Below are positions 52,930 through 64,000 of a DNA stretch of 64,000 nt, one piece after another. The stretch is taken from NCBI RefSeq assembly GCF_040956055.1, contig NC_090911.1, positions 1,524,830 through 1,588,829 of the forward strand, written 5' to 3'. The stretch is from Brachionichthys hirsutus (taxonomy: Eukaryota). The position numbers and the translations under genes were made by a program. Each line of letters begins with the position of its first letter. Within the stretch, counting starts at the first letter, position 1. The notes under the pieces were generated by a model. That model searched no databases. It was not told the origin of the DNA and was given only the letters and a program-made list of their open reading frames with translations.

Positions 52930-53400
52930 TCTATAAAATGACAAACCGAAACGTTTGTCCTCTGTCTGCTGAAGCGGTTGTCCTCTGTCTGCTGAAGCGG
53001 TTGTCCTCTGTCTGCTGAAACGGTTGTCCTCTCTGCTGAAGCGGTTGTCCTCTCTGCTGAAGCGGTTGTCCTCTGTCTGCTGAAGCGGTTGTCCTCTGTC
53101 TGCTGAAACGGTTGTCCTCTCTGCTGAAACGGTTGTCCTCTCTGCTGAAGCGGTTGTCCTCTGTCTGCTGAAACGGTTGTCCTCTGTCTGCTGAAGCGGT
53201 TGTCCTCTGTCTGCTGAAACGGTTGTCCTCTGTCTGCTGAAACGGTTGTCCTCTCTGCTGAAACGGTTGTCCTCTCTGCTGAAGCGGTTGTCCTCTGTCT
53301 GCTGAAACGGTTGTCCTCTGTCTGCTGAAGCGGTTGTCCTCTGTCTGCTGAAGCGGTTGTCCTCTCTGCTGAAGCGGTTGTCCTCTGTCTGCTGACACGA
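52930..53400. repeat. Minisatellite with 23-29-bp units ((ctgctgaa(a/g)cggttgtcctct(gt)) of about 18 units)
   Basis: It is a direct tandem array immediately upstream of the putative TMBIM 5' exon. Confidence 0.9.
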
Positions 53401-54929: not shown

Positions 54930-55027
54930 GTCGGCGCTGCATTCCAAAATCCAAGGGATTGAGAACTATTACAAGAGTAAAAAGAAGTAAAAGTAAAAGC
55001 TAAACGCGCTGCCGCTGTTCTCCGTAG

Positions 55028-55171
55028 GCCCGTTTTGACTTCACTCTTCTGTCTGGTGTTCTGATGATCCTGCTGGTGGACCTGGTCCTGTTCGGGGTCT
55101 TCAGCGCCTTCTATTACTCCTACGTTGCTGAAATCGCCTATGGATGTCTGGGTGCCCTGTTGTATTCACTG
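55028..55171 (+). CDS. tmbim1: TMBIM1-like exon 4 (ARFDFTLLSGVLMILLVDLVLFGVFSAFYYSYVAEIAYGCLGALLYSL)
   Basis: It has a ctccgtag acceptor and a GTAAGG donor. It is 48 codons. Confidence 0.7.
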
Positions 55172-55442
55172 GTAAGGAAATAATATATATATATATAAAA
55201 TCAGATGTCTGAAGATGTGTGTGAAGGCTTCAGGCTTTCAGTTCCCTCGTAAAACAGAACAGAAACTATTTCTACCGATACACTAATTGTGGTTTTATTA
55301 CTTAGAAACCTAGAATGTGTTTTAGGGTATCATCAGAATGTATTTTTTCTGATACCATTTACCTAGAGATCAAGCCCCCCCCCCCCCCTGCTGATTCCCT
55401 ATTGGTAATGCTTTAACCGGCCCCCCTGTCCTGATCCCTCAG

Positions 55443-55577
55443 TTCCTGGTGATCGACTGTCAGCTGCTGATGGGGCTGATGAGTCACCGCCTGGATCCAG
55501 AGGAATACGTCAACGCTGCTCTCATGATCTACATGGACGTCGTCCTCATCTTCCTCTGTCTGCTGGGAAGGAGATGA
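55443..55577 (+). CDS. tmbim1: TMBIM1-like exon 5 (FLVIDCQLLMGLMSHRLDPEEYVNAALMIYMDVVLIFLCLLGRR, then TGA stop at 55575-55577)
   Basis: It has a ctgatccctcag acceptor. It matches human TMBIM1 FLAYDTQLVLGNRKHTISPEDYITGALQIYTDIIYIFTFVLQLMG. A (CA)n tract starts about 20 nt after the stop. Confidence 0.75.
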   Translation, partial: FLVIDCQLLMGLMSHRLDPEEYVNAALMIYMDVVLIFLCLLGRR

Positions 55578-55594
55578 AACAGTGCACGCAGCAC

Positions 55595-55745
<151 letters not shown>

Positions 55746-56331
55746 AAGCCCGCGGTGGAACATCCTTTATTATCATCATCATGTTGAAACGTCAGTGAAT
55801 GAATATCAGTGTTCTGACAGAATCCTTCTTATGCATAAACAAATCAATCAGACAATCCCGTCAGAGCAACATTTAAAACAACAACAACTTGCAAGGCATT
55901 TTACTCTCTTGACATTTTGGCAATTGTTCAGCAGAATAACAGATAAGATGCCGTGTGTGACGAGCAATGCTGTACAGATTACATGATCCATCTTCGTCCA
56001 ACGGAACCTTCAGAGTCCAACTGACCCGACGTGACTCGACGTCTACAGCAGGCTTGTTCAGTGACTGGTTCACTGTAAGGATGCCGTTAGTTACCGTCTG
56101 AATTAAATAATCGTGGGGAAAAACAACTATTCAAGCGGCTCCCTAATTTGCCATTTAAAATGATATAAAAGCTGGTTTTATTCAACCACAGAGAAAAGCA
56201 GTGAGTCCTGACATTCGGCGCGTTTGCCTGCCCCAAGAATAAAAGCTGAGCAGCATCAACCGTAAATGAGGGGCCGAGCGGTGCGTCATCCATCCCTTGT
56301 GGAGGACAAGCCTCCCCGAAACACCCCGGCC

Positions 56332-56491
56332 TCACCACAGCGAGGAGTAGTTGAACCTGATCCGGAGCAGGTACCGCATGCGAGCCTGAGCAGGGTTGTA
56401 AACGATGAACTCGTTGTACAACAGGGAGTAACTGCTGCGGTTACCGACTCCCGTCTTCCCCACCGGCCCGACCGGCACGGTCGCTCCGTCC
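56332..56491 (-). CDS. parp2: PARP2 terminal exon (DGATVPVGPVGKTGVGNRSSYSLLYNEFIVYNPAQARMRYLLRIRFNYSSLW, then TGA at 56332-56334)
   Basis: Human PARP2 ends ..LNYNEYIVYNPNQVRMRYLLKVQFNFLQLW. The acceptor cag follows a (CT)n polypyrimidine run. Confidence 0.85.
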
Positions 56492-56574
56492 CTGGGAGAG
56501 AGAGAGAGAGAGAGCCCTGTCTGTTGATTTGTCGCTTCCAAAACGTGGCGAATCGAATCCAAAAATAATGAAGT

Positions 56575-56775
56575 GATGCTTCTGGAAAGAATTTGGGCAG
56601 CAGTGGCTCAGTCTGTTTGGATTTGGGTTGGCCACCGGAGGGTCACTGGTTCAAGTCCCGGCCCAGACAAAAAGTGTGGACTGGATAGGGGCCAATCTAC
56701 CTCCATTTCTGGTCATTTTTTGCTCCAGGGCACTGCCGATGTGCCCTGGAGCAAAAAATGACCAGAAATGATGAC
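56575..56775 (+). mobile_element. tRNA-derived SINE-like element in the last PARP2 intron. It carries an internal perfect hairpin
   Basis: The head ggctcagtctgtttggatttgggttggccaccggagggtcactggttcaagtcccggc has A- and B-box-like elements. The hairpin is ctggtcattttttgctccagggcac-tgccgatg-tgccctggagcaaaaaatgaccag. Confidence 0.55.
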
Positions 56776-56918
56776 TTGATGGACCCAATCACTAATTGAC
56801 TCCAGCGAACTGTTATAATCTAGATCCCGGGCTAAAACGTGCTGCGCATGCTCATTTCATGGGTCCACACCAAAATGTGCGACCGATATTTAGCCTGTAT
56901 AAAAAAGCATCCGCTTAC

Positions 56919-57043
56919 AGTGTGACAGCGTTTTTGGGGTCGGGTCCCGTCTGTCCCAGGCCCTTGGTGCTGTGTTTCCCCGCTGGCAGCTTGTTGGCCT
57001 CATAGTCGGCGCCCAGCAGCTCGTTGCAGTCTCCCAGAGCGAC
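56919..57043 (-). CDS. parp2: PARP2 catalytic exon (VALGDCNELLGADYEANKLPAGKHSTKGLGQTGPDPKNAVTL; includes the catalytic Glu of the ExE motif region)
   Basis: It matches human VALGQCNELLEANPKAEGLLQGKHSTKGLGKMAPSSAHFVTL. It has a cag acceptor and a GTAAGC donor. Confidence 0.85.
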
Positions 57044-57334
57044 CTGCACACAGACACGGGGGACACGCGCTGAAGAATGCTGACTCACAGCTGGGCTCAA
57101 CACGTGGAGGGCGTGGGTTCAAATCCTGTTGCTTTCATGCTGCTAGGAATTGTGGCCTTCAGGCTTACGGGGGTTCGACGTAAACAGCCTGTAAGCAACA
57201 TCACCTAGCACAGTTTGTCTTAGGGTAACTACCACCGGGGCAAAAGGGCAAATGCTCGTCAGAAATGTCACCATTTCCTCAAACGAACTGAAAAGCTGAG
57301 ATCCAGAATGCAGACACTTTTCATGCTTATTACC

Positions 57335-57950
57335 CTCGCCAAAGGGGGGCGAGGGTATTGCAATTGGGTCTGTTTGTCTGTCTGTTTGTTTGTCTGTCCG
57401 CGCGCATAACTCAAAAACTAGTAACCCAATCGACTTGTAATTTTTACACAAGCAAGGTTCTTGGCGTTGATCCGGATCTGGATCCAGATTCTAGAATTTT
57501 TTAAAGGATTCTTTAACATTGCAAGATAGGGCACGTTTTGACATTTTTCTTAATTTCTTCAAAACGCATGGCGGTATGGATCTGATAAGTCACACATCAC
57601 ACATAAGTACTCCTTAAAGGTCTATGACCATGACTAATTTCGGCCGGATCCGGATCACAATCCGGGTCTGAGAGCTAATTTTCGTTCTAAAATCAGCATT
57701 TTTCAGGAGTCCATCCTGACCTCAATTTTGGAGCTAGAGACTTCACATTTGGTGTGAACACTCATAGTTCATTCTAGTTTCATATATGTTACAGTTGTAG
57801 TTGTATCTTTTCCAGTTCCGGAGCAGCAAGCTAAAGCAGGTTTGGCCCCTCTGATCCGGAAGCCCTGTTTACTGTCTTACAAGATCGAATAATCTTTTGG
57901 AGGCGGGGTCTGCAATCTCTGATTGGCTCTTATTATTATTATTAGATGAA
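57335..57950. repeat. Unclassified repeat in a PARP2 intron that begins with a terminal hairpin (ccctcgcc aaagggg ggcgaggg)
   Basis: It has a palindromic terminus, internal ggatccggatc-type inverted motifs, and no coding potential. Classification as a TE is tentative. Confidence 0.3.
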
Positions 57951-58002
57951 CTAAAATGATCTTCATCTGATACATGCATCGCGTCCCCAGAATAGAACTC
58001 AC

Positions 58003-58101
58003 CTCACACAGCAGCAGCAAGCCAACATGGCTGTTCTGATTGGCGAAGCAGTAGTTGGCACTTTTTGACGACACGTCAGCAAAATAAATACCTTTTCCAA
58101 A
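58003..58101 (-). CDS. parp2: PARP2 catalytic exon ([33 protein letters not shown])
   Basis: It matches human [33 protein letters not shown]. It has a ttttttag acceptor and a GTGAGT donor, and is exactly 33 codons. Confidence 0.9.
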
Positions 58102-58188
58102 CTAAAAAATGAAGGAGAAGCAGGGAAACCATTAAATGGTGCGGAAAACACGTCAAGAACAAAAGAAGTTCAAATGAACCCCTCCTAC

Positions 58189-58288
58189 CATGTAGCCGGT
58201 GACGGGGGCTTCTGGCGGCGCCACTCGGAGCCCCTGACTGAGGATGCCGACCCAGTTTGCCAGACGGGAACCGTGCCACAACAGAGTC
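58189..58288 (-). CDS. parp2: PARP2 catalytic exon ([34 protein letters not shown]; contains the H-G-S of the NAD+ site)
   Basis: It matches human [34 protein letters not shown]. It is 100 nt. Confidence 0.9.
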
Positions 58289-58414
58289 CTGGTGCACAAC
58301 GGCGTCACATCAATGTTTAAATACGGATTATTCTTGTCATAGCGGAAGTCAGAGGAACATCAACGTAGTTCACGCACGCAGCGACCGGAACGTGCACCGT
58401 GTGCTACTTATTAC

Positions 58415-58542
58415 CTGTTGTGTAACTGCGAGAGGAAGCTGTCGCTCTCCCCTTCTCTGTCCACCGAGAAGATGTCGAGGACGGTCATGGTGTAGTCGGA
58501 GTGGGTGGGGGCGTGAGTGCTCCGCAGGTACTCTTCTATCAC
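58415..58542 (-). CDS. parp2: PARP2 catalytic-domain exon (VIEEYLRSTHAPTHSDYTMTVLDIFSVDREGESDSFLSQLHN)
   Basis: It matches human VISQYLQSTHAPTHSDYTMTLLDLFEVEKDGEKEAFREDLHN. It is 128 nt. Confidence 0.85.
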
Positions 58543-58639
58543 CTTCACACAAAGAAGAGGAACGTTCGGACAACGTTCCCGTCAGCCTTTGCTGCTCTCT
58601 GAACTGCTATCCGTCAGATAAAAAGCTGAGAAGGGAGTT

Positions 58640-58858
58640 AGAAACTACAGAAATGCCTCCACATACGAGCGCCCCGAGATACGAGCGCTCCGAGATACGA
58701 GATACGAGCGTTCTGAGACACGAGCGCCCCGAGATACGAGATACAAGATACGAGCGCTCCGAGATACGAGATACGAGCGTTCTGAGACACGAGCGTTCTG
58801 AGACAAGAGCGTTCTGAGACACGAGCGCCCCGAGATACAAGCGCTCCGAGATCACGCA
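58640..58858. repeat. 15-bp minisatellite (gagatacgagcg(c/t)tc-like units) in a PARP2 intron
   Basis: It is a tandem array that also contains nested gagatac half-units. Confidence 0.8.
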
Positions 58859-59105
58859 TGTAATCTGGCCTGTGGGTCAGTGCTCCTGTAATCTGGCCCG
58901 TGGGTCAGTGCTCCTGTAATCTGGCCCGTGGGTCAGTGCTCCTGTAATCTGGCCCGTGGGTCAGTGCTCCTGTAATCTGGCCTGTGGGTCAGTGATCCTA
59001 TAATCTGGCCTGTGGGTCAGTGCTCCTGTAATCTGGCCTGTGGGTCAGTGATCCTATAATCTGGCCTGTGGGTCAGTGCTCCTGTAATCTGGCCTGTGGG
59101 TCGGT
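58858..59105. repeat. 29-bp minisatellite of 8 units (tcctgtaatctggcc(c/t)gtgggtcagtgc), contiguous with the 15-bp array
   Basis: It is a direct tandem array. Confidence 0.9.
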
Positions 59106-59206
59106 ACTCCACAGAGATTCTACATTCACCATTTCAAGCTCACAGAACTCAGTTCATTTTCTGCCGTGCACTTTTTTTCTGAATGGCTGTTGCGGGACAA
59201 ACAGAC

Positions 59207-59341
59207 CTTGAACTCGTGGCAACTGGACTCCAACGGCTGCAGCTGGCACCTGAGGGACGAGTACTGTCTGTCCAGGGGGTGTTCGTCACCGTCCTCGCTG
59301 GACTTCACCATTTTTACTGCTATCTCAATGTCACTCAGAGC
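59207..59341 (-). CDS. parp2: PARP2 exon (ALSDIEIAVKMVKSSEDGDEHPLDRQYSSLRCQLQPLESSCHEFK)
   Basis: It matches human ALGDIEIAIKLVKTELQSPEHPLDQHYRNLHCALRPLDHESYEFK. It is exactly 45 codons. Confidence 0.85.
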
Positions 59342-59539
59342 CTTGAACAAGAGCAAAGACCTGCGTCACAGATTAATGTGAAGACATGAGTCGAGTATTT
59401 ATTGACAGGAAAGGGAGGCGAAGGAATGCGGTAAAGGGCAGCGGGTGGAGGCAACCCCGTCACTGCAGGACCCGGCCTCGTCCTACGGAGCCGCATTGCA
59501 TCCTCCGACTGGAGATCTGTTAACAAGGAAATCCTTTAC

Positions 59540-59603
59540 CTCCAAAAGTGCAATCTTTTCCTTCAGCTCATCTTCTGTGCGGATGATTGGAGGAGTTTTC
59601 AGC
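59540..59603 (-). CDS. parp2: PARP2 exon (LKTPPIIRTEDELKEKIALLE)
   Basis: It matches human LRTPPLIRTQKELSEKIQLLE. It has a tttttcag acceptor and a GTAAAG donor, and is 64 nt. Confidence 0.8.
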
Positions 59604-59677
59604 CTGAAAAATGACACCCTTTAGATTAAATTCTGGAGCAACATCAGGGCATTTCTGTCCAGCCACATCCTCCTTAC

Positions 59678-59816
59678 CCAAAGTCATGAGGGATGCGGGT
59701 GTAGAACTGGTTGCAGGCTTCAAGGAGCTGGTGACTGCTGCCCTTCTTCTTTAAACAACCCTCGATCTTCTTCAGGGCTGTGTAGCCTGCACGGATCTGC
59801 TCTGAGGTCAGCTTGC
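59678..59816 (-). CDS. parp2: PARP2 regulatory-domain exon (GKLTSEQIRAGYTALKKIEGCLKKKGSSHQLLEACNQFYTRIPHDFG)
   Basis: It matches human GKLTVAQIKAGYQSLKKIEDCIRAGQHGRALMEACNEFYTRIPHDFG. It is 139 nt. Confidence 0.85.
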
Positions 59817-60024
59817 CTGAAGGTAGGAAGACAAACACTGAACCTGAAAATGCCCCAGCACGGCAATGAGCGATGGAATCCCTGTTCCCTGCAGAATTCA
59901 CTGTTACCGCACATTTATTTATTTCAGATTAAATTGCATCGAGGAAAATGTTAATTCTGGGGGTATTATTGAAAATAAAAAGTATATGAAAGACAGATTC
60001 TGGTAGAGTTAGAGTCAAACAAAC

Positions 60025-60178
60025 CAAGAGGAGCTTTGCGGATGTCAAACTTCATCTCCAGGACGCACTCCTCCATCGCTCTGAGGTCACAGATGAGCTC
60101 CAGCAGAGACTGGATCTTCAGATCCAGCTTGGATGGCCTCTTTTTGGGAACAGCGTCCACTGTGGTCTGGTTCTGCTC
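60025..60178 (-). CDS. parp2: PARP2 exon (EQNQTTVDAVPKKRPSKLDLKIQSLLELICDLRAMEECVLEMKFDIRKAPL)
   Basis: It matches human ..ESQLDLRVQELIKLICNVQAMEEMMMEMKYNTKKAPLG. It has a cag acceptor and a GTTTGT donor, and is 154 nt. Confidence 0.8.
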
Positions 60179-60276
60179 CTGGAGTCAAAGCAGAAATCGA
60201 CGTTCACAATGATCTGCTGCTCACGATTCACGTGCTAAATGTTATTGAGCAGCTCTAGAGACGTCCGGTCCATTAC

Positions 60277-60379
60277 CTTCTCGTTTTTGCTGAAGTCCAT
60301 GAACACCATGTCGTACTTTCCAGCGACTTTCTCAAACGCCGCTCGGTGTTCCCACTCGTTCTTGGTCTTATCAAAGAAC
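60277..60379 (-). CDS. parp2: PARP2 exon (FFDKTKNEWEHRAAFEKVAGKYDMVFMDFSKNEK)
   Basis: It matches human FLDKTKNNWEDREKFEKVPGKYDMLQMDYATNTQ. It has a tgttacag acceptor and a GTAATG donor, and is 103 nt. Confidence 0.8.
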
Positions 60380-60465
60380 CTGTAACAGAGCAAACCCAGT
60401 TTTACTGAAGCCGCTTCAGTGTGACACATTCGGAAATGCTAAATGCTAATTAGCGGCAGTCTCAC

Positions 60466-60541
60466 TTTTTCTTGAAGACATCTTTGGCCTTCTGCAGGTC
60501 TCCACCACAGGCAGTCAGACTGTTCTGACCCACTTTTCCCA
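60466..60541 (-). CDS. parp2: PARP2 WGR exon (VGKVGQNSLTACGGDLQKAKDVFKKK)
   Basis: It matches human VGKMGQHSLVACSGNLNKAKEIFQKK. It is 76 nt. Confidence 0.8.
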
Positions 60542-60651
60542 CTGGAGGAAAGAAAGCGCAAAACAAACATGTTGTTTATTATTTCAAGTTTCCAAAAAGC
60601 CATCCGAGCAGGAGGCTCGTGCTGCTTCCATTTAAACCCGCACAGGCTCAC

Positions 60652-60748
60652 CTCTGCCCCACCTCAGCCAGACGGCGTACGCCTTGGAGCCGTCGTCCTC
60701 CAGCAGCTGCATCAGGTAGTACTTGTTGTTGTTAAACTGGAGGTTTGT
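60652..60748 (-). CDS. parp2: PARP2 WGR exon (TNLQFNNNKYYLMQLLEDDGSKAYAVWLRWGR)
   Basis: It is a near-exact match to human TNLQFNNNKYYLIQLLEDDAQRNFSVWMRWGR. It is 97 nt. Confidence 0.85.
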
Positions 60749-60853
60749 CTACGCAAAACAGGCGGCAGGAGATTTGAATGCAAACCATGCACCTTTCTGA
60801 CTTCATCTGGTAAATGCCTTTCATTCAATGTTAAATATTATTCAGCAGCTTAC

Positions 60854-60904
60854 CTGATTTAGCATCGTGTCGTAAACATCAGTTCCTTCACTGTAAACAT
60901 GGGC
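60854..60904 (-). CDS. parp2: PARP2 WGR exon (AHVYSEGTDVYDTMLNQ)
   Basis: It matches human AHVYCEGNDVYDVMLNQ. It has a ttttcag acceptor and a GTAAGC donor, and is 17 codons. Confidence 0.8.
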
Positions 60905-61300
60905 CTGAAAGAGAGATGGAAGAGTTACTCATTATTATAGTTACTGATAATGTGCGGCAACTGCAGCTGATCTGAATGTTGTTATATGAAAATATTACTA
61001 TTATTATTATAATATGAGACCGGCTAAATGTCCATATCCCTAAATAAGAAAGACAATACCAAATACTTTAGCAATATCTTTTCCATATCAAAGGTTTCCT
61101 TGACCTGCTCACAAGATTACATTTGGGAGAGGTTCCACTACGCAAAATAAGGACTTAAAGGATTTAGAGTTGTGTATCGCGAGCTCTAAACTCTGCCCTG
61201 CTCACAGAAGGAACTGCAGCATAGCTAAAGCGGGCGTCGAACCACAACCTGGCCGATGGTAACACGGCTTTATTTTCTCATGGGGCCATGAAGACGGTAC

Positions 61301-61371
61301 CTTTCCAAGTTTGGCTTTGCATTCGGGGTCCACTGGTGCTTTTCCTTTCATGACCACTGTCCTCACGACCT
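61301..61371 (-). CDS. parp2: PARP2 exon (VVRTVVMKGKAPVDPECKAKLGK)
   Basis: It matches human KALLLKGKAPVDPECTAKVGK. It has a cag acceptor and a GTACCG donor, and is 71 nt. Confidence 0.75.
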
Positions 61372-61536
61372 CTGTTCAACATCCCAAAACCAGAGACCAA
61401 ACATTACTGTGGAAACCTGATCCAAGGTAATGCTATATATCTTAATGAAGCTGGAGATACCAAAGGAAGCTGCCATAGCTGCTAAGCTTTGTGGGTAATT
61501 CCTGAACACACACAGACAGCGTCAGGTTCACATTAC

Positions 61537-61680
61537 CTTCTCTATTTGTTTCCTCACTGGGCTTTTCTTCTGTTTTTAATTGACTCGCGTTTTGCCCTCT
61601 TCTTCTCTTAGGTGCGGGATGCTGACTCGTCTCCTCCTCTTCCTCTTTAACCTGAACAGTCGACTCACGATTCAAACTCT
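61537..61680 (-). CDS. parp2: PARP2 N-terminal basic/NLS exon (SLNRESTVQVKEEEEETSQHPAPKRRRGQNASQLKTEEKPSEETNRE)
   Basis: There is a tandem cagag acceptor at 61679-61683 and a GTAATG donor. The phase-1 exit is compatible with the next exon. Confidence 0.7.
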
Positions 61681-61898
61681 CTGAATAAAGGAAGAGAGAA
61701 CACATTTCAAATATTCTTAGGAACTTGTTTGACATAAATATCAAAATCATGCTCATGAAAATGAGCCTAACCCTCTTCGGAGTCCAAGTCAAACACCAAA
61801 TTGCAGCCATGGAAAAGACAGAAATGAGCAAAGTTATAGCTTCCTGTACGTTGCAGCGTAACAATGCCACAACACCAAACACACACACCTGGTTTTAC

Positions 61899-62098
61899 CG
61901 TCTGACAGCGGATCTTCCTCTTGTATTTGGTGACGGGATTAATCTGGAGCATTTTCTTGAGGTTCACGTCAAAAGATTTCCCGGTTTCCAGAGACAGAAG
62001 AAGAGTGGTTTGTCCTGAAGAGACAGCCGAGTCCAACAAGGCGCCGGCAGAAGGCGAGTACGGTTCCCATTGTCCTCCATCGCCTTCCCACTGCCACA
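61899..62098 (-). CDS. parp2: PARP2 inserted exon encoding a WWE domain (VWQWEGDGGQWEPYSPSAGALLDSAVSSGQTTLLLSLETGKSFDVNLKKMLQINPVTKYKRKIRCQT)
   Basis: It has a ttttccttgccgctcag acceptor and a GTAAAA donor. It is 200 nt, made of 2 nt plus 66 codons. It enters compatibly with the phase-1 exit of exon 1 and exits at phase 0. The motifs W.WE.D.G.W..Y ... S.D....M.Q.N..T...R.IR are the canonical WWE signature. Confidence 0.6.
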
Positions 62099-62881
62099 CT
62101 GAGCGGCAAGGAAAATAGCACGGATCTTATGACCACTGTGAAATTAGTTTCATCTCAAAAACAGCAGTTTATGCCAGAGTAATGCGATGCGACAAGTTTA
62201 TAAACAATTAAGCATGGAATAAAAAATGAACTATTAATATTGCTAATAACGTTTATATTTCTGTTGGCTTTATCCAGTAATAATTCAGAGTAAAGAGTCA
62301 AAGTAGGTAGTAGACAGTACTGTAACTCAGTTTGACAGCTCTGGAGAAGATTGATTAAGTATGACAATTACAAATATTTGCATTAGTAGTATTAGTGGCA
62401 ATAAAATGAATAATATTACTAATTTTAAAGCTCTCAGCCTTACCCACCAAGGTGAGTTACCTTTATAATAAAAAGTACCAAATACTCTGACTTCATTGTA
62501 GATTTTTTCCTCCACGAGTTTCCTAAAACTAACGTATCATGATAATTATTAGAAACAGAATGTATTTATTCTATGCTTCAATTATGTTGTTTAAAAAGCC
62601 TTTTGATGTAAGACACAGCAACACAAACGCATCAGTTCACCTGTCCTTTCAGTTTTACTGATACTAATATATAATATATAAGTTGTAGGCGCTGTTTTAG
62701 CAGAGAGTCGTTCTTTTCGACACTAACTTGATCAATAAGACCTGGAAGGACAATAAATAATGACATTAATAGATCCTGCTTAAAAGCTGCCAACTCTGCC
62801 CGGACGCGAACCGGCCCGAGTGACGTAGATACTGGCTAGCTAGCTAGCGAGCTAGCCTTCTACAGGACGCCAAGCACCAAC

Positions 62882-62954
62882 CTGTTTTTGACTGGACATC
62901 TTCATCCCGCTGCGCAGTCTGGCCTTTATTTGCCAGCCGCTTGGAAGACCTCAT
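62882..62954 (-). CDS. parp2: PARP2 exon 1 coding part (MRSSKRLANKGQTAQRDEDVQSKT)
   Basis: The ATG at 62952-62954 has an upstream in-frame stop (taa). The donor is GTTGGT and the exit is phase 1. Confidence 0.7.
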
Positions 62955-63349
62955 GGTGGTTTATTAAAACGATGGCGGAGGGAGACCCGACAGTCACCGC
63001 AGACAGGCTGCTAAAGGTTCCCCGCGGAGGAAGCAGGATCAGGATGTGTCACTCAATTATCTAAAGAAAATACATTCGTGTTAGAACCTCGTCAGAAACA
63101 GCTGACATTTTCTTTGCTATCATAATGGTTTAAGGGCAAAACTGAAATCAATAAAAAAGATATATCTTTAATAATAATGTCAACCTGAACTGTACGGCGT
63201 GACCCCTGGGAACAAATCTCAGGACCAGACGTTCCGGCTTCACTGATCGTCGGAATTATTTTGCGGGTGGAACAATACAAATATACTCTCGGTCCGGAAC
63301 TGGAAGCCGAGTTCCGGTTCCGGTTCCAACCCAAGACAGTCACTGAAGC
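62955..63349. promoter_or_regulatory. PARP2 promoter and putative bidirectional region
   Basis: The PARP2 ATG at 62954 and the candidate plus-strand ATG at 63350 flank this interval. It is CpG-rich. Confidence 0.4.
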
Positions 63350-63412
63350 ATGGCGTCCCGGAGCTTCGGCGCCTGTGTCCTCTGTCATCCTGTCCTGAGG
63401 ATGACGTGCAGG
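63350..63412 (+). CDS. Candidate first coding exon of an unidentified plus-strand gene divergent from PARP2 (MASRSFGACVLCHPVLRMTCR; identity unknown)
   Basis: The ATG has a strong Kozak context (gaagcATGG). The exon is 21 codons and phase 0, and ends at a GTGAGC donor. It lies about 400 bp from the PARP2 start on the opposite strand. Downstream exons are not in the window. Confidence 0.3.
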
Positions 63413-64000
63413 GTGAGCGCGGTTTGTGTGTGTGTGTGTTTGTGTGTTTGTGTGTTTGTGTGTTTGTGTGTTTGTGTGTTTGTGTGTAGCATCGTTGCTT
63501 TGGAGGTCAGACACACAAAGACCTGAGAGTTTAACAGTTTAACACACATGCATCCCATGAACAGTTCTTCTTCTCATAGCATCTCCTATTGCTAGTTTTG
63601 GCAGGGAATATGTTTTCTTAAGACATCAATTATTATATATAGAACTATATTGAATTAAGATACATTTTAGTGTAGCTGGTTTCATGGGAAGGAAATCCCT
63701 GAATCTAAATCGACTGCTGAATACAGTAGATATAAAACAATAAATAGACAACAAGCAACCATGTCCTAGTGTTTTGAAGTGTATTGTTGATTTCATCGTT
63801 CATGTGTTGCATGTAGCTACGGGCAGGATATCAAACGAATGATTTAATCAGACATGCCTCTGAGAATATATATCCATACTTTGTAATTTTACTAGAAATG
63901 CAACTAAATAACTTTAAAACTTTGGATATGTAAATCTTGAATCTGTCCGTCATGTTAAGTATCAGATAATCAGTGGAACTGACAAATACAATTTCCTTTT

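Follow-up and report, generated by a model that had tools for sequence, protein, structure and literature searches.

A WWE-encoding second exon in PARP2 of the handfish Brachionichthys hirsutus and the WWE-WGR-regulatory-catalytic architecture of animal PARP2

The 64,000 nucleotides of the Brachionichthys hirsutus genome analysed here (the window) hold a complete PARP2 gene, in which a WWE domain is encoded between exon 1 and the exons for the nuclear localization signal (NLS)-like region and the WGR domain. With high confidence, handfish PARP2 uses the WWE exon constitutively as its second coding exon, which gives rise to the one WWE domain that teleost PARP2 normally carries at its N-terminus and that stems from an ancient metazoan WWE-WGR-regulatory-catalytic architecture, of which the human protein is a form without WWE. 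For B. hirsutus itself, inclusion of the exon is indicated by the intact open reading frame (ORF), the good splice sites and the orthologues. Such a domain on PARP2 is already known, being the rule in teleosts, the normal state in fishes and in most animals other than placental mammals, widespread in animals, present in public annotations and in print since 2014.

The gene runs on the minus strand from 62954 to 56335 and comprises 17 exons encoding 642 amino acids, a model obtained by listing the minus-strand ORF segments and subsequently enumerating the GT/AG pairs that preserve the frame from one conserved peptide anchor to the next. Translation begins with the ATG at 62954, while exon 1 ends with ...AAAACAG|gttggt at 62882 (donor CAG|gttggt) in phase 1; the stop codon is TGA at 56334-56332. 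The exons, all on the minus strand, are as follows.

62882 to 62954, minus strand: exon 1, coding part, MRSSKRLANKGQTAQRDEDVQSKT and the first base of codon 25
61889 to 62098, minus strand: exon 2, the WWE exon as corrected below, 210 bp, phase 1-1, aa 25-95
61537 to 61680, minus strand: exon 3, aa 95-143, acidic and basic linker with an NLS-like KRRRG
61301 to 61371, minus strand: exon 4, aa 143-166, conserved VVMKGKAPVDPEC segment ahead of the WGR domain
60854 to 60904, minus strand: exon 5, aa 167-183, WGR domain begins
60652 to 60748, minus strand: exon 6, aa 184-216, WGR domain
60466 to 60541, minus strand: exon 7, aa 216-241, WGR domain
60277 to 60379, minus strand: exon 8, aa 241-275, WGR domain ends
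60025 to 60178, minus strand: exon 9, aa 276-327, linker and beginning of the PARP regulatory (helical) domain
59678 to 59816, minus strand: exon 10, aa 327-373, regulatory domain
59540 to 59603, minus strand: exon 11, aa 373-394, regulatory domain
59207 to 59341, minus strand: exon 12, aa 395-439, regulatory domain ends
58415 to 58542, minus strand: exon 13, aa 440-482, catalytic domain
58189 to 58288, minus strand: exon 14, aa 482-515, catalytic domain with His487 of the H-Y-E triad
58003 to 58101, minus strand: exon 15, aa 516-548, catalytic domain with Tyr521
56919 to 57043, minus strand: exon 16, aa 549-590, catalytic domain
56335 to 56491, minus strand: exon 17, aa 590-642, catalytic domain with Glu617

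Pfam assigns WWE to residues 25-88, WGR to 177-256, PARP_reg to 291-421 and PARP to 436-636 of this model, and the H-Y-E triad His487, Tyr521 and Glu617 aligns with that of human PARP2. As judged by sequence, the gene is a PARP2 orthologue, a clade 1 DNA-damage PARP for which PARP2 is a nearer match than PARP1 or PARP3, with full-length human PARP2 (765 bits) ranking ahead of PARP1 (449 bits) and PARP3 (200 bits) in a search of the PDB. The human protein (PDB 6X0L chain P) shares the basic NLS region, WGR, helical and ART parts, which can be aligned from residue 114 of the fish protein through to the C-terminus, with exon 3 corresponding to human PARP2 from residue ~53; ahead of the aligned part, however, no more than some 50 residues are present in human PARP2, and no counterpart of the WWE domain.

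Several further features accompany the locus. The acceptor of exon 9 (60172-60181) is NAGNAG-like, ccag|gag|cag|AAC, with in-frame alternatives at 60178, 60175 and 60172, and in Echeneis the junction between exons 3 and 4 varies slightly in a similar way among isoforms X1-X3. Intron 12 harbours repeats (58663-59110), namely nine copies of a 28-bp unit with 94% identity at 58859-59110 and, adjoining them, degenerate 16-32-bp repeats at 58663-58856, which jointly create long spurious ORFs in all three frames. Beside the gene lie a 23-bp minisatellite of about 20 copies (52948-53399), an (AC)73 microsatellite at 55599-55744, approximately 0.6 kb downstream of the stop codon, and a (GTTTGTGT)8 repeat at 63422-63487, approximately 0.5 kb upstream of exon 1. 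Mammalian PARP2 lies head-to-head with RPPH1, which encodes RNase P RNA. No head-to-head RNase P RNA gene is found within the window in the approximately 1 kb upstream of exon 1 (62955-64000), and an Rfam scan of 55000-64000 gave no match at the gathering threshold and hence no RNase P RNA gene beside the PARP2 promoter.

The first-pass annotation of this DNA had proposed an in-frame coding exon between PARP2 exon 1 and the NLS/WGR exons, and such an exon is indeed part of the spliced model. Its acceptor at 62098, ttccttgccgctcag|TG (ccgctcag|TG), was also correctly placed according to the splice enumeration; reading of the exon begins VWQWEGDGGQWEPYSPSAGALLDSAVSSGQTTLLLSLETGKSFDVNLKKMLQINPVTKYKRKIRCQT..., and the junction with exon 1, SKT|VWQW, is common to the handfish model and the orthologues. 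The 3' end requires revision. Two models of the junction between exons 2 and 3 preserve the frame in the enumeration: the one drawn at first, with the donor ACG|gtaaaa after 61899 and the second AG of the tandem cagag, so that exon 3 starts from 61678, and another with the donor CCAG|gtgtgt after 61889 and the first AG of cagag, with exon 3 from 61680. The segment at issue is the following.

61899 to 61908, minus strand: last 10 nt of the WWE exon as first drawn, the presumed donor GTAAAA being the next 6 nt, 61898-61893

In all 96 of the 96 teleost PARP2 proteins with a parsable junction, the sequence reads ...IR[SC]QTVK[PTA], followed by E (or D) and then SLN. The GTAAAA at 61898-61893 corresponds to the codons Val-Lys of this conserved ...QTVKP tail, and because all parsed orthologues read on through QTVKP, the exon ends at 61889 and not at 61899. 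A genomic contig from another fish (L001) provides a second view of the same junction: GTAAAA is there GTCAAA, retaining the Val codon, substitutions relative to the handfish fall mainly on third codon positions (ACG/ACA, GTA/GTC), and conservation ends exactly at CCAG|GT. On that contig, which has no tandem AG, the frame is open only with the donor after 61889, whereas the junction drawn at first leads into a stop codon. By these sequence comparisons, the true WWE exon is 62098-61889, with 210 instead of 200 bp, entered and left in phase 1, and the next exon starts from 61680. The donor had thus been placed 10 nt off and the start of the next exon two positions too far downstream, as the first AG of cagag is the one used, and once the donor is corrected, no compensation by a tandem acceptor is needed.

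The domain assignment itself stands. The exon peptide, VWQWEGDGGQWEPY...KYKRKIRCQT, scores as Pfam WWE (PF02825) with 59.1 bits (cut-off 21.1; E=5.7e-16), a match which spans profile positions 2-66 of 67, covers residues 25-88 of the protein and reaches 54.2 bits when the full protein is scanned. The resemblance to WWE is far beyond chance.

Whether this ORF belongs to PARP2 at all, or instead to another gene, overlapping or independent, or is a decaying relic left unspliced, might be asked because the public B. hirsutus PARP2 protein (NCBI, 572 aa, here P0019) has neither residues 1-73 nor a Pfam WWE call. This public model nevertheless contains the 3' third of the WWE exon (MLQINPVTKYKRKIRCQTVKP...) and so itself puts the exon in PARP2, while the ORF is intact with a near full-length WWE score, the substitutions against another species are biased to third codon positions, and conservation ends at splice sites. 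In addition, orthologous mRNAs splice the WWE exon to exon 1 and the WGR exons. Logan contigs representing such mRNAs contain exon 1, WWE, NLS and WGR in a single ORF, which effectively refutes an overlapping independent gene as the owner of the exon; the whole reading retains hardly any credibility, and a pseudo-exon or a chance WWE resemblance was rejected along with it. The WWE exon is accordingly treated in the following as part of PARP2.

The public protein deserves a closer description. Starting with Met74, P0019 matches the gene model with 100% identity up to its end except at one junction, where it joins 61876 to 61676 (GVCVC; ...VKPGVCVCLNRE...) in place of the conserved 61889 to 61680 (...VKPESLNRE...). 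Most probably, P0019 is both 5'-truncated and mis-spliced at the WWE exon, an annotation error which hides the WWE domain, and it could be corrected to a WWE-bearing protein of 642 aa. That its length equals an exact skip of 70 codons (642-70=572) is a coincidence, as the protein starts at Met74 within the exon and uses another junction.

It had further been argued that the WWE exon is a regulated cassette which some transcripts skip, giving a mammalian-like PARP2 without a poly(ADP-ribose) (PAR) reader. One part of this argument holds, in that skipping is frame-neutral (210 nt, phase 1-1) and leaves an open coding sequence, ...QSKT|ESLNRE..., and the acceptor of exon 3 is indeed a cag|ag tandem. 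The proposed mechanism, an exon of 200 nt combined with a 2-nt acceptor shift, falls because the donor was mis-called: it needs a donor that the orthologues do not use and runs into a stop codon in another species. The homologue search with the full-length model, which yielded 1,897 matches below 1e-30, likewise speaks against it, as no isoform skipping the WWE exon is present among the best 120 of the 1,897, a set that includes several RefSeq X1/X2/X3 isoform series and about twenty ORFs derived from transcripts, the latter located on Logan contigs of 2-4 kb. One of the Logan contigs (2,111 nt, run SRR28040486) carries a single uninterrupted WWE-WGR-regulatory-catalytic ORF of 650 aa and represents a spliced mRNA, since the PARP2 gene in the window has 16 introns. 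The search restricted to exon 1, WWE and exon 3 recovered just short genomic ORFs from fish assemblies, conserved and unannotated. Two matches come without a Pfam WWE call, P0019 and P0126 (Echeneis, 576 aa); both begin at the exon-internal Met of ...KKM[LV]QINPVTKYKRK and, from these start points, are 5'-truncated models and not skips. A regulated cassette is thus improbable. Equally improbable is the functional consequence it would have, namely that skipping in some tissues or conditions might switch fish PARP2 between a WWE form, recruited and primed by PAR made by PARP1, and a mammalian-like form without a structured reader. The WWE exon is preferably seen as a constitutive part of the transcript.

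The combination of a WWE domain with a DNA-damage PARP had been considered novel on the assumption that vertebrate PARP2 has no WWE. This assumption does not survive comparison: 118 of the best 120 homologues (of 1,897), all teleost PARP2, combine PF02825 with WGR, PARP_reg and PARP, further examples extend from platypus to sponge, and WWE-bearing PARP2 of non-therian animals was already described by Perina et al., 2014 (DNA Repair 23:4, PMC4245714). Neither Otto 2005 nor Citarelli 2010 refers to a WWE domain in PARP2. Most of the 118 are NCBI or UniProt teleost entries of 614-691 aa named poly [ADP-ribose] polymerase 2; the labels among the best 120 are PARP2, generic poly [ADP-ribose] polymerase and, in a few cases, 'hypothetical protein', but never PARP1 or PARP3. 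The best full-length match is from Antennarius striatus, with 87% identity over 100% of the query. Teleost PARP2 such as those of A. striatus (647 aa) and Micropterus salmoides (isoform X1, 651 aa) have the same domain order, 73-87% full-length identity and the same junctions SKT|VWQW and QTVKP|ES, with the handfish differing by species-level substitutions only, for example Phe67 for Tyr and Cys89 for Ser.

The wider distribution emerged when residues 1-271 were searched exhaustively against cluster representatives and the matches examined by Pfam scans and name look-ups. WWE together with WGR and PARP_reg and/or PARP is found in platypus (XP_028933514.1), the frog Leptobrachium, the painted turtle Chrysemys picta and the electric ray Narcine bancroftii and, among invertebrates, in the snail Bulinus, the tick Ornithodoros, the sponge Ephydatia and the nematode Aphelenchoides, while fragment models from the turtle Chelydra and the nematode Anisakis comprise WWE and WGR only. 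In animals, the WWE-WGR-regulatory-catalytic arrangement is the ancestral state, from which human PARP2 departs as the derived form. The mammals covered by this comparison are platypus, which has the domain, and human, which lacks it.

The number of WWE domains that precede WGR in animal PARP2 ranges from one to three. In platypus, C. picta, N. bancroftii (isoform X3), Leptobrachium, Bulinus and Ephydatia, the WWE domains are likewise N-terminal to the WGR, regulatory and catalytic domains, but number two or sometimes three, whereas the handfish and teleosts in general possess one; the PARP2 entries of platypus, frog, ray, turtle and sponge (P0141, P0139, P0151, P0294, P0150) have two, with three in one case. 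For platypus XP_028933514.1, the only protein compared in this way, match coordinates align the teleost WWE with the WGR-proximal one of the two, which suggests that the distal WWE domain was lost in the teleost lineage. As a separate observation, three frog and coelacanth entries named or clustered as PARP2 (P0190, P0295, P0279) contain two WWE domains along with MADF, BED zinc-finger or Myb/SANT-like domains and no WGR or catalytic part; these might represent unusual isoforms, gene models joined in error or fusions with domesticated transposases.

An AlphaFold2 model of the exon-internal sequence, of moderate confidence (pLDDT 70.8), has the order b-b-a-b-b-b-b-b and displays the half-beta-barrel with one alpha-helix that characterizes the WWE fold. 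In a Foldseek comparison with the PDB, the top 11 matches are all WWE domains (TRIP12, HUWE1, RNF146; probability 0.93-1.0, TM 0.54-0.60), and several of these structures contain ADP-ribose, ADP, ATP or iso-ADP-ribose. By sequence and by profile comparison, the WWE domains of HUWE1, DTX1 and TRIP12 (E-values 3e-10 to 7e-10) are the closest solved sequences, HUWE1 and TRIP12 being also the closest folds (Foldseek probability 1.0, TM approximately 0.6), with DTX1 absent among the fold matches listed. These relatives, including DTX1/Deltex, are ubiquitin ligases, in which ADP-ribose reading is coupled to ubiquitylation and not to PARP catalysis. The WWE domains of PARP7/11/12/13/14 belong to the same Pfam family and are also located beside a PARP catalytic domain, but are much more distant (ZAP and PARP11, E-values 0.6-0.8; PARP14 a weak fold match only), and their carriers are clade-3 mono-ADP-ribosyltransferases and not DNA-damage PARPs like PARP2.

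The prototype iso-ADP-ribose reader, the WWE domain of RNF146, has been characterized at the level of individual contacts: Q153 and Y107 hold the adenine, R163 and Y144 the AMP phosphate, and the substitutions Y107A, Y144A and R163A abolish PAR binding, while the ZAP WWE has a Trp at the position of Y107 (PMC8853533, PMC9367489). The handfish domain shares the fold with RNF146 (PDB 3V3L), albeit with a weaker profile match (E=1.5e-3), and the profile alignment equates Y107 with Trp28, Y144 with Phe67, Q153 with Gln76 and R163 with Arg85. The Gln and Arg are thereby kept, both being invariant across 18 aligned teleost sequences, and an aromatic residue occupies the Tyr107 position; differences from RNF146 are the Phe in place of Tyr144 and an Asp, invariant in the aligned teleosts, at the position of Arg110. 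At codon 67 (61970-61972, minus strand), the handfish has Phe, against Tyr in 90% or more of the teleost PARP2 sequences aligned, and Phe67 may weaken ligand binding in the handfish. On this alignment, the AMP sub-pocket appears largely intact, with the C-terminal extension of RNF146, which contributes the phosphoribose sub-pocket, outside the aligned region; the specificity could be for ADP-ribose or AMP-like ligands, as in ZAP, or weaker.

Because three of the four key RNF146 contact positions are conserved or conservatively replaced (the fourth being a Tyr-to-Phe change in this species) and the nearest solved relatives HUWE1 and TRIP12 bind ADP-ribose or ATP, the WWE domain probably reads the ADP-ribose polymer, with iso-ADP-ribose or an AMP-containing unit of PAR initially made by PARP1 as the putative ligand. 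The domain would help to bring PARP2 to damaged chromatin or hold it there, favouring PAR-primed activity. For the human protein, this task has been assigned to the basic, disordered N-terminal region, which is reported to bind PAR, DNA and RNA and to mediate recruitment dependent on PARP1 as well as PAR-primed activity (PMC6089979). From the PAR binding and PARP1-dependent recruitment of this region, the likeliest role for the WWE domain would be that of a structured version of the human N-terminal reader function.

Alternatively, the domain might be a structural or protein-interaction module which no longer binds ADP-ribose polymers. Some WWE domains of the PARP family have been reported not to bind iso-ADP-ribose, Phe67 and the invariant Asp replace RNF146 Tyr144 and Arg110, respectively, and no experimental test of whether any PARP2 WWE binds PAR or iso-ADP-ribose was found in the searchable literature. 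Against this stand the counterparts of the adenine-binding Gln153 and the phosphate-binding Arg163 in all 18 aligned teleosts, the Trp at the stacking position, as in ZAP, and the crystallization of the nearest WWE domains of known structure, those of HUWE1 and TRIP12, together with ADP-ribose, ADP or ATP, which make loss of binding the unlikely reading, though less so than the other alternatives considered above. A reader of ADP-ribose polymers remains the preferred role for the WWE domain. Human PARP2 has been reported to need PAR binding by its N-terminal region, and PARP2 of fish or frogs would be a convenient system in which to address the question of a structured reader as it applies across most animals.
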